A DNA stretch of 64,000 nt, taken from Escherichia coli (GTDB lineage: Bacteria > Pseudomonadota > Gammaproteobacteria > Enterobacterales > Enterobacteriaceae). The stretch lies in the NCBI RefSeq assembly GCF_024502345.1, contig NZ_JALDNN010000001.1. The stretch is one strand, 5' to 3'. The position numbers and the translations under genes were made by a program. The notes below the pieces were generated by a model. It was not told the origin of the DNA. It was given only the letters and a program-made list of their open reading frames with translations, and searched no databases. This document shows, piece after piece, positions 33,821 to 42,959 of the stretch (position 1 is its first letter; every line of letters starts with the position of its first letter).

Positions 33821-34655
33821 TCATATTGTTCCCCCCGGCATCGCATTCACCAGACCTGAAACCGCCTTCTGCGCCGCCTCTGCGCTTTGTGCACCGGGTA
33901 CCAGAATCACCTTACGGCACTCCTCTTCACGTTTTTCGAAAATCTCATATCCCCGGGCGGCCTCTTCAAACGGCATATAGTGGGTAACAATTTCTTCTGG
34001 TTTCAGTAATCCTTTCTCAATTAACGGTAATAATTCTCCCAGCCATGCGTGAACGTGGGTCTGTCCCATTTTAAACGTCAACCCTTTATCAAAGGCGTCG
34101 CCAAACAGGAAACCGTGAATAAATCCAGCGTAGACGCCCGGTACGCTAACAATGCCGCCACGCCTGACCGCCCCAATACACTGACGCAACGCTTTACCGC
34201 TGCTGCCCTCCAGTTTCAGGTTAGTCAGCACCGTTTCCGTGGTGCTGCCTTTCGCTTCAAAACCGACGGCGTCTATTACTGCATCCACGCCCCGGTGACC
34301 TGCCGTTTGTTCAATAATTGACTGTGCCGGATCGCTATCTTCATCGAAATTAATCGGGATCGCGCCGTAGCGGTCGGCGGCGAAACGCAAGCGGTAGGGA
34401 TGATGATCAACAACAAAAATCTGTTCCGCACCGAGCAACCGTGCACAGGCGATTGTCAACAATCCCACAGGACCAGCACCATAGACTGCAACGCTTGAAC
34501 CTTGTTGGATCTGCGCATTTTTTGCTGCCTGCCATGCCGTTGGCAGAATATCAGAAAGGAAAAGCGCTTTATCATCTGCAAGCAAAGGCGGTACTTTAAA
34601 CGGCCCCACATTCCCTCTAGGGACGCGGACATATTCCGCCTGCCCACCATGTTCA
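33821..34655 (-). pseudogene. ybdR: 5'-truncated Zn-dependent alcohol dehydrogenase family gene (Rossmann and C-terminal part only)
   Basis: 262-aa ORF retains the GAGPVG NAD-binding motif and C-terminus but lacks the N-terminal catalytic domain; homology stops at an in-frame TAA about 45 nt upstream and AT-rich sequence follows. Confidence 0.7.
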
Positions 34656-38813: not shown

Positions 38814-38825
38814 AAGGTAATTCAT

Positions 38826-38861
38826 GGATGGTTGAACTATATCTCTGCTTTTCAACCATCC
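38826..38861 (+). other. stable stem-loop downstream of dsbG (no T-run)
   Basis: ggatggttgaa ... ttcaaccatcc inverted repeat with 14-nt loop. Confidence 0.3.
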
Positions 38862-39021
38862 TAAAAAAGCATGAATTGCTCGCTCTGCCCTAAGTGGCTG
38901 TGCTATTTTAGAAAAACTTAATCCTGAGTTAAGCAAAAAAACATAATCAATAAAAATATATACGCAAAAAACATTGATTAAGTGAATATATCATGGAAGA
39001 AAAATATAACCGGAGTAGTGT

Positions 39022-39924
39022 ATGGCCAATCTCTACGACTTGAAAAAGTTCGACTTAAATCTTCTTGTCATATTTGAGTGTATTTACCAGCATTTAAGCA
39101 TTAGCAAAGCTGCTGAATCACTATATATCACCCCATCAGCCGTGAGCCAGTCGTTACAACGCTTACGTGCGCAATTTAATGACCCTTTATTCATTCGCTC
39201 AGGAAAAGGTATCGCGCCGACGACAACAGGGTTGAATCTGCATCACCATCTTGAGAAAAATCTCAGAGGCCTTGAACAAACAATTAATATAGTCAATAAG
39301 TCCGAACTAAAGAAAAACTTTATTATCTACGGCCCTCAGCTCATTTCTTGCTCTAATAATAGTATGCTGATCCGCTGCCTACGGCAAGATGCCTCTGTCG
39401 AGATTGAGTGCCATGATATCCTCATGTCAGCAGAGAATGCTGAAGAACTGTTGGTTCACCGCAAAGCCGATCTGGTGATCACCCAAATGCCAGTGATCAG
39501 CCGTTCCGTCATTTGCATGCCATTGCATACGATTCGCAATACTCTCATTTGTAGTAATAGGCATCCACGAATTACTGACAATAGCACTTATGAACAAATT
39601 ATGGCAGAAGAGTTCACCCAATTAATATCTAAATCAGCAGGGGTTGATGATATTCAAATGGAAATAGACGAGAGATTTATGAATCGCAAAATTTCATTTC
39701 GTGGTTCCTCTTTGCTGACAATCATTAATAGCATTGCAGTTACAGATTTACTGGGAATAGTCCCCTATGAACTTTATAACTCCCACCGTGACTCTCTTAA
39801 TTTAAAAGAGATAAAACTAGAACATCCGTTACCTTCAATAAAGCCTTACATTTCCTATAATAAATCTTCTTTAAACAATCTGGTGTTCTCACGATTTATT
39901 GACCGTCTAAATGAGTGTTTTTGA
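39022..39924 (+). CDS. ybdO: LysR-family transcriptional regulator YbdO
   Basis: 300 aa; N-terminal HTH (ITPSAVSQSLQRLR); AT-rich gene. Confidence 0.88.
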   Translation: MANLYDLKKFDLNLLVIFECIYQHLSISKAAESLYITPSAVSQSLQRLRAQFNDPLFIRSGKGIAPTTTGLNLHHHLEKNLRGLEQTINIVNKSELKKNFIIYGPQLISCSNNSMLIRCLRQDASVEIECHDILMSAENAEELLVHRKADLVITQMPVISRSVICMPLHTIRNTLICSNRHPRITDNSTYEQIMAEEFTQLISKSAGVDDIQMEIDERFMNRKISFRGSSLLTIINSIAVTDLLGIVPYELYNSHRDSLNLKEIKLEHPLPSIKPYISYNKSSLNNLVFSRFIDRLNECF

Positions 39925-40176
39925 TATATAACCTCAGACAGCTACTATAACTTTCACCTATTTATTCACAGCGCGAATGAAAAATAAAACACTCTGCTTT
40001 TCAGTGTTTACTTTATAATTAACAGTCTTATCTCACTGATCACCCTGTAACGTTCAGAGAGCGTCTTCAGATGTCTATTTATAAAATTCCTCTTCCGCTC
40101 AATATTCTGGAAGCTGCACGAGAGCGTATTACCTGGACACTCAACACCCTACCCCGCGTTTGTGTCTCATTTTCTG

Positions 40177-40185
40177 GCGGCAAAG
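40177..40185. repeat. target-site duplication, left copy
   Basis: GCGGCAAAG immediately 5' of the left repeat; identical 9-mer at 41243..41251. Confidence 0.85.
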
Positions 40186-40203
40186 GGCTTTGTTGAATAA
40201 ATC
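40186..40203. repeat. IS903-family left terminal inverted repeat
   Basis: GGCTTTGTTGAATAAATC. Confidence 0.9.
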
Positions 40204-40262
40204 GAACTTTTGCTGAGTTGAAGGATCAGATCACGTATCTTCCCGACAACGCAGACCGTTCC

Positions 40263-41186
40263 GTGGCAAAGCAAAAGTTCAAAATCACCAACTGGCCCAC
40301 CTACAATAAAGCCCTCATCAACCGTGGCTCCATAACTTTCTGGCTGGATGATGAAGCTATTCAGGCCTGGTATGAGTCAGCAACACCTTCTTCACGAGGC
40401 AGACCTCAGCGCTATTCTGACCTTGCCATCACGACTGTGCTGGTCATTAAACGCGTATTCAGGCTGACCCTGCGCGCTGCGCAGGGCTTTATTGATTCCA
40501 TTTTTTCTCTGATGAACGTTCCGCTACGCTGCCCGGATTACAGCTGTGTCAGCAGGCGGGCAAAGTCGGTTAATGTCAGTTTCAAAACGCCCACCCGGGG
40601 TGAAATCGCACACCTGGTAATTGATTCCACCGGGCTGAAGGTCTTCGGTGAAGGCGAGTGGAAAGTCAAAAAGCATGGCCAGGAACGCCGCCGTATCTGG
40701 CGTAAGCTGCATCTCGCCGTTGACAGTAAAACACATGAAATCATCTGCGCTGACCTGTCGCTGAACAACGTTACGGACTCAGAGGCCTTCCCCGGGTTAA
40801 TCCGGCAAACCCACCGGAAAATCAGGTCAGCCGCCGCCGATGGCGCTTACGATACCCGGCTATGTCACGATGAACTGCGGCGTAAGAAAATCAGCGCGCT
40901 TATCCCTCCCCGAAAAGGTGCGGGTTACTGGCCCGGTGAATATGCAGACCGTAACCGTGCAGTGGCTAATCAGCGAATGACCGGGAGTAATGCGCGGTGG
41001 AAATGGACAACAGATTACAACCGTCGCTCGATAGCGGAAACGGCGATGTACCGGGTAAAACAGCTGTTCGGGGGTTCACTGACACTGCGTGACTACGATG
41101 GTCAGGTTGCAGAGGCTATGGCCCTGGTACGAGCGCTGAACAAAATGACGAAAGCAGGTATGCCTGAAAGCGTGCGTATTGCCTGA
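40263..41186 (+). CDS. IS903-family transposase (DDE)
   Basis: 307 codons from GTG (track ORF starts at an upstream TTG, 40218); fills almost the whole element; strong resemblance to IS903/IS102 transposase as recalled. Confidence 0.88.
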   Translation: MAKQKFKITNWPTYNKALINRGSITFWLDDEAIQAWYESATPSSRGRPQRYSDLAITTVLVIKRVFRLTLRAAQGFIDSIFSLMNVPLRCPDYSCVSRRAKSVNVSFKTPTRGEIAHLVIDSTGLKVFGEGEWKVKKHGQERRRIWRKLHLAVDSKTHEIICADLSLNNVTDSEAFPGLIRQTHRKIRSAAADGAYDTRLCHDELRRKKISALIPPRKGAGYWPGEYADRNRAVANQRMTGSNARWKWTTDYNRRSIAETAMYRVKQLFGGSLTLRDYDGQVAEAMALVRALNKMTKAGMPESVRIA

Positions 41187-41224
41187 AAACACAACCCGCT
41201 ACGGGGGAGACTTACCCGAAATCT

Positions 41225-41242
41225 GATTTATTCAACAAAGCC
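41225..41242. repeat. IS903-family right terminal inverted repeat
   Basis: GATTTATTCAACAAAGCC, exact reverse complement of the left repeat. Confidence 0.9.
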
Positions 41243-41251
41243 GCGGCAAAG
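41243..41251. repeat. target-site duplication, right copy
   Basis: GCGGCAAAG immediately 3' of the right repeat. Confidence 0.85.
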
Positions 41252-42329
41252 ACTCTGGTTTAATGCTGCATCTGACAGCCGAACTTGCCCGACAAATGGG
41301 CAAAAAAATCTGCGTTTTGTTTATCGACTGGGAGGCGCAATTCTCTTGCACCATTAACTATGTTCAGTCCCTGCGCGAGTTGTACACCGATGTCATCGAA
41401 GAGTTTTACTGGGTTGCGCTCCCGCTTACGACGCAAAATTCCCTTTCACAATACCAACCCGAATGGCAGTGCTGGGAACCTGATGTCGAATGGGTGCGTC
41501 AGCCCCCGCAAGATGCGATAACCGATCCTGACTTTTTCTGCTTTTACCAGCCAGGCATGACCTTCGAACAATTTGTACGTGAGTTTGCCGAATGGTTTTC
41601 ACAAAAACGTCCGGCGGCGATGATGATCGGCATCCGTGCGGATGAGTCCTACAACCGTTTTGTCGCCATCGCCAGTTTAAATAAACAACGTTTTGCCGAC
41701 GATAAACCCTGGACTACGGCCGCACCAGGCGGTCATAGCTGGTACATTTATCCCATTTACGACTGGAAAGTGGCTGATATCTGGACCTGGTATGCAAATC
41801 ATCAAAGTCTCTGCAACCCACTGTATAACCTAATGTATCAGGCAGGCGTTCCTCTGCGTCATATGCGAATTTGCGAACCTTTTGGCCCGGAGCAACGACA
41901 AGGATTATGGCTCTATCACGTTATCGAACCGGATCGCTGGGCTGCTATGTGCGCACGAGTCAGCGGGGTAAAAAGTGGCGGCATTTACGCCGGACATGAC
42001 AATCATTTCTATGGGCATCGGAAAATCCTCAAGCCAGAACATTTAGACTGGCAAGAATATGCATTATTGCTGCTCAATAGCATGCCGGAAAAAACAGCTG
42101 AGCATTACCGCAATAAAATCGCCATTTATTTGCACTGGTATCAGAAAAAAGGCATCGAGGTTCCACAAACCCAGCAAGGGGACATTGGCGCGAAAGATAT
42201 CCCCTCCTGGCGGCGGATATGCAAAGTTTTACTCAATAACGATTACTGGTGTCGGGCATTATCATTTAGTCCTACGAAAGCGAAGAACTATCAGCGTTAT
42301 AACAAACGGATAAAAGGAAAACGTCAGGA

Positions 42330-42959
42330 ATGGGGGATACTATGCAACAACGATTAACGCAGGATTTAACGCAATTTCTCGCCAGCTTGCCGGAAGATGA
42401 TCGCATCAAAGCGATTAATGAAATCCGCATGGCGATCCATCAGGTTAGCCCCTTTCGTGAAGAGCCAGTGGATTGCGTTCTGTGGGTTAAAAACAGCCAA
42501 CTTATGCCTAATGATTACAACCCAAACAACGTGGCACCACCCGAAAAAAAACTGCTGAAAAAATCCATTGAAATAGATGGTTTTACCCAACCCATTGTGG
42601 TCACGCATACGGATAAAAATGCCCTGGAAATCGTGGATGGTTTTCACCGCCATGAAATTGGTAAAGGCTCATCATCATTAAAATTACGCTTAAAAGGTTA
42701 TTTGCCGGTGACCTGTCTGGAAGGTACGCGTAATCAACGCATCGCCGCGACTATTCGTCATAATCGCGCTCGTGGACGCCATCAAATCACCGCCATGTCG
42801 GAAATCGTCCGTGAACTTAGCCAGTTGGGATGGGACGATAATAAAATTGGCAAAGAGCTGGGAATGGACAGCGACGAAGTGCTGCGCCTGAAGCAAATTA
42901 ACGGCCTGCAAGAGTTGTTTGCCGACCGTCAATATTCCCGCGCCTGGACGGTTAAATAG
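42330..42959 (+). CDS. ybdM: ParB/Srx-like nuclease-domain protein YbdM
   Basis: 209 aa; start overlaps ybdN end by 28 bp; ParB N-terminal-domain-like protein. Confidence 0.85.
   Translation: MGDTMQQRLTQDLTQFLASLPEDDRIKAINEIRMAIHQVSPFREEPVDCVLWVKNSQLMPNDYNPNNVAPPEKKLLKKSIEIDGFTQPIVVTHTDKNALEIVDGFHRHEIGKGSSSLKLRLKGYLPVTCLEGTRNQRIAATIRHNRARGRHQITAMSEIVRELSQLGWDDNKIGKELGMDSDEVLRLKQINGLQELFADRQYSRAWTVK

Follow-up and report, generated by a model that had tools for sequence, protein, structure and literature searches.

What kind of system do the ybdN and ybdM genes of Escherichia coli encode, and what has become of them in the strain considered here? Both genes lie, next to ybdO, in a 64,000-nucleotide stretch of E. 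coli DNA (contig NZ_JALDNN010000001.1 of RefSeq assembly GCF_024502345.1), hereafter called the window. ybdO-ybdN-ybdM is an already known E. coli locus (b0601 to b0603) whose gene pair is silenced; E. coli K-12 still has genes without an assigned function, ybdN and ybdM among them. An initial annotation of the window had described the biochemical function of the pair as unsettled, in agreement with a report that calls YbdM "completely uncharacterized" (PMC8764527). Full-text searches of the literature turned up regulation and phenotype data only, and no biochemical function. The comparisons reported here identify ybdNM as a form of the two-gene module IbrA/IbrB that resides on the chromosome throughout Enterobacteriaceae and has a LysR repressor of its own.

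Kinship with IbrA/IbrB, which had been proposed in the initial annotation, was borne out by protein names, domain architecture and gene adjacency. YbdN consists of a PAPS_reduct domain followed by DUF3440, as expected of an IbrA-type protein, and matches phrog_2302 over its full length (1.6e-76). A ParB-like small subunit is encoded directly downstream on the same strand, as expected of an IbrB-type protein, and a full-length match to phrog_2159 (3.9e-69) was also found in PHROGs. RefSeq names YbdM "IbrB-like domain-containing protein," an ortholog, P0048, bears the name "IbrA family prophage gene co-activator," and phage records annotate the pair as "co-activator of prophage gene expression IbrA/IbrB." This label reportedly goes back to an experiment of Sandt et al. 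in the Journal of Bacteriology in 2002 on the expression of prophage eib genes. Effects on expression are the only phenotype attached to the IbrA/IbrB family name.

At an E value of 1e-10 or lower, the YbdN family comprises about 1000 clusters (50% identity). We sampled 80 YbdN-related loci from many phyla, taking one genome per species. An IbrB-like open reading frame (ORF) lay directly 3' of the ybdN homolog, on the same strand, at every one of the 77 loci with room for it, and at 65 of these 77 its start lay within a range from 80 bp ahead of the IbrA stop codon to 150 bp beyond it. In all phyla sampled, the IbrA and IbrB genes were shown to be an obligate, translationally coupled pair. The overlap between ybdN and ybdM is 28 bp in all enteric orthologs.

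The module's main habitat was shown to be phages, prophages and plasmids. A tblastn search found the YbdN family in 224 phage records (from phages of Flavobacterium, Mycobacterium, Streptococcus, Arthrobacter, Bacillus and others), and the two genes stand side by side in Streptococcus phage CHPC1230, Lactobacillus phage phiAQ113, Pseudoalteromonas phage XCL1123 and Mycobacterium phage Gaia; lytic as well as temperate phages carry the pair. One sampled locus (L041) lies in a prophage, with endolysin and tail protein genes nearby. At several sampled non-enteric chromosomal loci, the neighbors are housekeeping genes (histidine kinases, EttA, GalE, AddAB and ClpA). Homologs were present in 855 plasmid records. 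On virulence plasmids of Salmonella and Klebsiella, the aerobactin (iuc/iutA) or salmochelin (iro) loci adjoin a paralogous pair that shares about 58% identity with YbdN. IbrA/IbrB relatives occur in hundreds of phage genomes, on Klebsiella, E. coli and Salmonella virulence plasmids, and in gut Bacteroidota, Firmicutes and Akkermansia. On one Salmonella plasmid (L004:8992-10856), the pair adjoins iucABCD-iutA, with IS3- and IS66-family elements just upstream; on a Klebsiella pneumoniae IncFIB/IncHI1B plasmid (L005:8989-10850), it adjoins iroBCDN/fecIA, and an IS1 element lies about 7 kb upstream.

A third gene recurs beside the pair. In 18 non-enteric loci (including L030, L041 and L070:6664-7992), a SNF2-family helicase of about 420 amino acids (aa), with the Pfam domains SNF2-rel_dom and Helicase_C and membership in phrog_62, is encoded immediately upstream. 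Phage phiAQ113 has the same helicase (L002:3833-4999; 34% identity, E value of 3e-62), annotated there as hypothetical, while in phage Gaia a gene annotated as exonuclease/helicase occupies the SNF2 position within a replication module and is a candidate member of this family. Where the helicase is present, SNF2, IbrA and IbrB form a three-gene cassette. In 16 Bacteroidota loci, a gene for a protein of about 135 aa takes the upstream position instead (e.g., L056:7559-7963); this protein had no PHROG, NCBIfam or significant Pfam match, and a hint of a GNAT domain was nonsignificant (E value of 0.096).

Pfam analysis of YbdN, reconstructed as described below, placed PF01507 (PAPS_reduct) at residues 30 to 234 (1.2e-13) and PF11922 (DUF3440) at residues 237 to 383 (5.1e-23). 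The AlphaFold model (predicted local distance difference test [pLDDT] of 89.4, predicted template modeling score of 0.85) shows a PP-loop fold like that of phosphoadenosine phosphosulfate (PAPS) reductase, joined to an all-helical DUF3440 domain. The nearest solved folds are flavin adenine dinucleotide (FAD) synthase, adenosine phosphosulfate (APS)/PAPS reductase and CysD; single-sequence searches of solved structures gave only marginal matches for both YbdN and YbdM. The initial annotation had assigned YbdN to the PP-loop superfamily and YbdM to the ParB/sulfiredoxin fold, and both calls agree with Pfam and the structure models. In a family alignment (A1; 40 sequences, 28 to 84% identity), G37, K38, S40, D64, E66, W113, W119, P206, D214 and Y230 are invariant, and G165, R167, E170, S171 and R174 are nearly so. 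No cysteine in this alignment is invariant or near-invariant, and many members have A, D or N in place of C246. It follows that the YbdN-type subunit is not a sulfur enzyme of the DndC or CysH type. Fold and motifs suggest that YbdN belongs to the PAPS-reductase-like clade as a PP-loop ATP pyrophosphatase that does not depend on cysteine.

The curated CysH, CysD and DndC models scored 18 to 35 bits against YbdN, where the cutoffs are 154 to 413. RefSeq names YbdN "phosphoadenosine phosphosulfate reductase"; scores below the cutoffs (for CysH, 34.8 bits with TIGR02057 against 254.2 and 34 bits with NF002537 against 154) and the lack of a conserved cysteine rule this identity out. The catalytic C-terminal cysteine of CysH has no invariant counterpart in the family, the C terminus of YbdN being DUF3440.

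The name and the fold nonetheless raise the question of a role in small-molecule nucleotide or sulfur metabolism, in which YbdN would adenylate or reduce a sulfate or phosphate metabolite, after the pattern of CysD, CysH or FMN adenylyltransferase, and YbdM would act as a kinase, after that of sulfiredoxin or serine kinase, or as a sensor or regulator of the pathway. We consider this quite unlikely. The nearest solved folds are indeed small-molecule enzymes (those given above for YbdN; sulfiredoxin, SbnI and free serine kinase for YbdM), and genes of the cys regulon rise by 2 to 2.8 log2 when ybdO is deleted (PMC9068703). Set against this are the PAPS reductase model scores of 34 to 35 bits versus cutoffs of 154 to 254, the missing CysH cysteine and the KorB-type helix-turn-helix (HTH) of YbdM. 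A passenger of phages and plasmids with a SNF2 DNA translocase as partner also fits a metabolic pathway poorly, and no transporter or other pathway genes co-occurred with the pair across the 80 loci.

The PP-loop fold would likewise allow modification of RNA bases (in tRNA or rRNA), with YbdN adenylating a base carbonyl in the manner of TilS, ThiI and TtcA and YbdM serving as specificity or NTPase subunit. This is highly improbable: Pfam finds only DUF3440 besides the PP-loop domain, and no RNA-binding domain of the THUMP, PUA or TilS C-terminal kind; there are no conserved cysteines for thiolation; and the partners are of DNA type (ParB/HTH and SNF2).

YbdM gave a weak Pfam match to ParB_N. 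Its structure model (pLDDT of 85.7) comprises a ParB/sulfiredoxin fold followed by a C-terminal HTH, and the 209-aa chain ends after the HTH, without a C-terminal dimerization domain. The sequence contains the motifs NxYNPN, DGxHR and TIRHNRARGxH, with GM..E....Q..G in the HTH region. The family is highly conserved: across phyla its mean column identity is 46%, the motifs NxYNPN, DGxHR, RHNRARGxH and GM..E....Q..G are invariant, and so are N61, N64, P65, N66, D103, G104, R107, R143 to G149 and H151. A profile search of solved structures returned Noc and ParB only, with box I matched by NxYNPN and the GERR box by DGxHR. Membership in the partition proteins proper (ParB/Spo0J) was not supported, as TIGR00180 scored 15.8 bits against a cutoff of 58.45 and no parA gene lies nearby.

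This architecture, which resembles that of KorB, ParB and Noc and keeps motifs like boxes I, II and III, raises the possibility that the pair is purely regulatory. YbdM would then be a KorB- or VirB-like DNA clamp switched by nucleoside triphosphate (NTP) that activates or antisilences genes, and YbdN would make or remove its ligand or load it onto DNA. The ParB-like protein VirB counteracts H-NS silencing in Shigella, and the ybdO-ybdN-ybdM locus lies in H-NS-bound, AT-rich DNA. We regard this explanation as unlikely: a complete catalytic PP-loop enzyme is strictly conserved beside every IbrB, which together with the SNF2 partner suggests catalysis on a macromolecule, and YbdM does not have the C-terminal dimerization domain that ParB clamps use.

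We prefer, at a level of confidence just short of probable, to read the pair as a DNA-directed, nucleotide-dependent enzyme pair that alters the state or the expression of DNA, because of the SNF2 partner, the phage and plasmid habitat, the obligate pairing, the catalytic residues conserved in YbdN, the conserved motifs of YbdM, the published regulation, the purifying selection and the family label. The cysteine-free enzyme subunit, the KorB/ParB-like HTH subunit and the recurrent SNF2 partner narrow the hypotheses that can be entertained. YbdM would dock on DNA by its HTH, with bound NTP acting as a switch or as a phosphoryl donor, and would bring YbdN to the DNA; YbdN would spend ATP (yielding AMP and pyrophosphate) on adenylating a target that sits on the DNA or on a ligand bound to it. 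The changed DNA or nucleoprotein state would in turn alter the expression of nearby or silenced genes, as IbrAB reportedly does for prophage eib genes, and in phages the same chemistry would probably prime or protect the phage genome.

Several points weigh against a DNA-directed enzyme pair. The ATP pyrophosphatase activity, NTP binding, DNA binding and YbdN-YbdM complex that it invokes are predicted from folds and motifs, and a substrate or product has been shown for no member of the IbrA/IbrB family. The PAPS-reductase-like clade includes small-molecule enzymes (CysD, flavin mononucleotide [FMN] adenylyltransferase and CysH), as ParB/sulfiredoxin-fold proteins of the DGxHR type include kinases of small molecules or proteins (the serine kinases SbnI and SerK, and sulfiredoxin); the substrate of YbdN may accordingly be something other than DNA. 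The DUF3440 domain of YbdN gave no informative structural match, and Enterobacteriaceae loci have no SNF2 partner. The phenotypes reported in E. coli are small and nonspecific (including those in PMC8764527), and the rise of the cys regulon upon derepression of ybdNM could point to sulfur-nucleotide metabolism (PMC9068703).

A bolder form of the proposal, which we consider unlikely, is that IbrA/IbrB, with its frequent SNF2 partner, is an undescribed system of DNA modification or DNA-linked nucleotide transfer. The ParB/sulfiredoxin-fold subunit would bind DNA and phosphorylate or open a site, and the cysteine-free subunit would adenylate that site or substitute it via an adenylated intermediate. 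The covalent mark would relieve silencing and shield phage or plasmid DNA from host nucleases, and the enterobacterial copy would have been domesticated under repression by YbdO (CitR), and by H-NS acting through ybdO.

The copy in the window is inactivated. Its gene order is that of E. coli K-12 (ahpF-ahpC-dsbG-ybdO-ybdN-ybdM-ybdL-ybdH), carried in the reverse direction, and its features are as follows.

38814-39021, no strand: dsbG-ybdO intergenic region, 31.7% GC, the most AT-rich stretch, with the ybdO promoter and an upstream H-NS element according to PMC4720273
39022-39924, plus strand: ybdO (citR), encoding a LysR-type repressor of ybdNM of 300 aa (ORF; NF047710; RefSeq; PMC9068703)
39925-40070, plus strand: ybdO-ybdN intergenic region, 35.6% GC, with a promoter-like site and a candidate operator
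40071-40185, plus strand: 5' fragment of ybdN, codons 1 to 38 plus 1 base, ending ...SFSGGK
40177-40185: left copy of the target-site duplication, GCGGCAAAG, 9 bp
40186-41242, plus strand: IS903B (IS5 family), 1057 bp, transposase ORF at 40218-41186, oriented as ybdN
41243-41251: right copy of the target-site duplication, GCGGCAAAG, 9 bp
41252-42357, plus strand: 3' fragment of ybdN, remainder of codon 39 (D) to codon 406 plus the stop codon
42330-42959, plus strand: ybdM, intact, 209 aa, IbrB-like, first 28 bp shared with the end of ybdN

The ORFs agree with the gene positions given in the initial annotation and with its overlap of ybdN and ybdM: the ybdN frame ends at 42357 and ybdM starts at 42330, so that the overlap is exactly 28 bp. 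The neighbors of the pair in the window include dsbG, ahpCF and ybdL, the last of which is a convergent aminotransferase gene. ybdL, encoding a pyridoxal phosphate-dependent aminotransferase and abutting ybdM, was considered as an analogue of DndA and rejected because it is convergent, is annotated as a methionine-oxo-acid transaminase and adjoins the pair only in Enterobacteriaceae.

That an insertion sequence (IS) interrupts ybdN had been noted before, and the element can now be named. It has the length of IS903B (about 1057 bp), 18-bp terminal inverted repeats (GGCTTTGTTGAATAAATC, at 40186-40203 and 41225-41242), a 9-bp target duplication and an IS5-family transposase (NF033579, 357 bits against a cutoff of 140); 100% identical copies in other E. 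coli genomes are annotated in RefSeq as "IS5-like element IS903B family transposase." The window contains one copy. The insertion point lies inside the PP-loop codons, between GGK and DS of SGGKDS, so the statement that ybdN carries SGGKDS does not hold for the window as it stands, where the motif appears only after in silico excision. The upstream piece reads ...SFSGGKGLC* and stops inside the IS after 41 aa. The downstream piece has no start codon before M43 (41263), and its longest remaining ORF lacks the PP-loop. Since IS903B splits the PP-loop, any YbdN product would be without the ATP-binding motif. Removal of 40186-41251 (the element and one repeat copy) restored SGGKDS and a 1221-nt frame of 406 aa, and the product of the rejoined segments 40071-40185 and 41252-42357 is 99% identical to E. 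coli YbdN. In an alignment to the intact locus of E. coli F9792, the 9 bp are present once there, as expected of a clean insertion with duplication, and the interrupted gene has no secondary lesions.

None of 5426 complete E. coli genomes has the IS/ybdN junction, and the insertion is a null allele that arose recently and is specific to this strain. The ybdN-ybdM module is dead in the window; ybdM is intact and has lost its upstream coupling. The transposase gene, ybdN and ybdM all have the same orientation (40218-42959). Because the transposase gene is co-oriented with the pair, transcription running on from the IS could still cover the ybdN remnant, which lacks the PP-loop, and intact ybdM, and YbdM would then be expressed without a functional partner.

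A second inactivating lesion lies less than 6 kb from the IS insertion. At 34649/34650, 507 bp of the closest complete genome, that of E. coli F9792 (L089, 8151-8657), are missing from the window; the gap takes in some 410 bp at the 5' end of ybdR, a minus-strand gene for a zinc-dependent alcohol dehydrogenase, and a stretch towards uspG.

The locus had initially been described as an AT-rich island. The GC content is 39.3% in ybdO, 47.6% in reconstructed ybdN and 47.0% in ybdM, compared with 51.5% for the window, and the clearly AT-rich parts are ybdO and its flanks only (31.7% in dsbG-ybdO and 35.6% in ybdO-ybdN). The description stands for these parts; it does not stand for ybdN and ybdM, nor does the locus behave as a variable island, being syntenic and nearly universal. 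DNA from the 3' part of ybdN through ybdM was found in 5420 of the 5426 complete E. coli genomes, and 5400 of these have at least 80% of the stretch within a single aligned place. Citrobacter, Enterobacter, Pseudocitrobacter and Kluyvera share the order ybdO(LysR)-ybdN-ybdM-ybdL. In comparison with a divergent Escherichia genome, the ratio of nonsynonymous to synonymous substitution (dN/dS) was 0.031 for ybdO, 0.043 for ybdN and 0.032 for ybdM; synonymous sites are saturated against other genera, and therefore only the values within Escherichia are usable. In E. coli, ybdNM is core and strongly constrained by purifying selection, and its synteny extends across Enterobacteriaceae; ybdO-ybdN-ybdM is a conserved, ancestrally acquired core feature. 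ybdO has been classed as an H-NS-bound, horizontally transferred gene (PMC4720273).

From the IS, the initial annotation had concluded that the genes are dispensable or counterselected in this lineage. Counterselection is not supported, given the junction in 0 of 5426 genomes, the 3' ybdN-ybdM stretch largely in one place in 5400, dN/dS values of 0.03 to 0.04 and the lack of further lesions; what a single recent IS hit shows is dispensability in that strain. Beyond this dispensability the null allele adds little.

These distributions also bear on a defensive role against phages or plasmids, likewise suggested by the initial annotation, in which YbdN and YbdM would mark or sense DNA in the manner of DndBC, SspD and BrxP. 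The pair shares its superfamilies with DndC/DndB, and PADLOC-DB 2.0 yielded weak partial matches to DndC (2e-5, 21.8 bits), BrxP (1.2e-4, 18.5 bits) and MTase_II (16.6 bits), with no significant component for either protein. The SNF2 partner found in other taxa has a weak likeness to DpdE, ZorD and BrxH, which are helicases. YbdM protein is 29-fold higher in the presence of a blaCTX-M-15 plasmid, and deletion of ybdM slightly raises the cost of the plasmid; overexpression of YbdM costs 10% of the growth rate (PMC8764527). The context gives a defensive role no support, and we judge it distinctly improbable. No PADLOC family was recovered beyond the shared PP-loop or ParB core, the cassette holds no nuclease or other effector gene, and there are no conserved cysteines for sulfur transfer. 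In E. coli the locus is core, and it is syntenic across genera, unlike defense islands; the neighbors at sampled non-enteric loci are housekeeping genes, and phages, lytic and temperate, themselves carry the pair.

The initial annotation had also placed a dedicated LysR regulator beside the pair, and published binding and expression data corroborate this. YbdO scored 463.5 bits over residues 1 to 294 against the NCBIfam equivalog model NF047710 (CitR; cutoff of 400), and RefSeq annotates ybdO as citR. ChIP-exo, in which immunoprecipitated chromatin is treated with exonuclease, gave a YbdO/CitR peak at the ybdNM locus, and in a ybdO deletion strain ybdN rose by 5.5 log2 (about 45-fold) and ybdM by 2.5 log2 (PMC9068703). 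The flagellar regulon was also upregulated in this strain, as was the cys regulon (cysDNC, cysJI and cysAUW, by 2 to 2.8 log2; PMC9068703, Table 1). The induction of the cys regulon may link the PAPS-reductase-like YbdN to sulfur-starvation signaling. Transcription of ybdO starts 107 bp upstream of the ATG, and H-NS represses ybdO via elements lying upstream of the promoter and within the coding region, with H-NS-dependent elements mapped at -250 to -176 and +27 to +164 (PMC4720273). According to this published work, ybdNM is kept almost silent by YbdO/CitR and ybdO is repressed by H-NS.

A promoter scan of the ybdO-ybdN region placed a promoter-like site at 39921-39948. The scan found 3 such sites where 4.6 were expected, which is not above chance, and the site is therefore only a lead. 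A terminator scan found no terminator-like site in the region. An 18-nt imperfect inverted repeat, AATGAAAAATAAAACACT at 39976-39993 and AGTGTTTACTTTATAATT at 40003-40020 (78% complementary), lies between the promoter-like site and the ybdN start codon and is, by sequence and position, a candidate CitR operator.

Among known systems, DndC/DndB (and also SspD and BrxP) combine a PP-loop PAPS-reductase-like enzyme with a ParB-superfamily protein, as YbdN/YbdM do. DndB carries the motif DGQHR, which the DGFHR of YbdM resembles. DndC has three [4Fe-4S]-binding cysteines and a Cys dyad, and the DndC/DndB combination is linked to DNA (PMC10853773). In the 40-sequence YbdN alignment, these cysteines have no conserved counterpart. 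The DndC model TIGR03183 scored 22.2 bits against a cutoff of 290.4 and covered residues 145 to 223 only, and no DndB model matched YbdM in NCBIfam (E value of 0.01 or lower) or PADLOC (0.1 or lower). Partners like DndA, DndD or DndE and a restriction module were absent beside the pair in the window, and no such partners recurred in the 80 related loci. The gene order, enzyme first and then ParB, is a further difference. YbdN/YbdM resemble DndC/DndB, BrxP and SspD at the superfamily level only; the DndC/DndB likeness drawn by the initial annotation stands at that level and, by model scores, cysteines and partners, goes no further.

YbdM shares with KorB, ParB, Noc and VirB a ParB N-terminal domain followed by an HTH, and its profile aligns to Noc and ParB over boxes I and II. 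It differs from these proteins in having DGxHR in place of the GERR arginine patch, in the additional invariant TIRHNRARGxH motif, and in lacking a ParA partner and a dimerization domain. Sulfiredoxin and SbnI/SerK, the phosphotransferases of the ParB/sulfiredoxin fold, act on proteins or free amino acids and, unlike YbdM, have no HTH; sequence searches did not place YbdM among them (E values of 0.045 to 0.17). YbdN shares with CysH, CysD and eukaryote-type FMN adenylyltransferase the catalytic fold and the motifs SGGKDS, GxRxxES..R and DW..D.W. It differs from them in scoring far below the curated cutoffs, in lacking a catalytic C-terminal cysteine, in its extra DUF3440 domain of about 170 aa and in being always paired with IbrB.

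The closest relatives are the other IbrA/IbrB pairs. From these ybdNM is set apart in that it is chromosomal and inherited vertically, has a LysR repressor of its own, lacks the SNF2 partner of many phage and non-enteric cassettes and, in the window, is disrupted by an IS. Like them, it consists of a PAPS_reduct and DUF3440 protein directly followed by a ParB-N and HTH protein.

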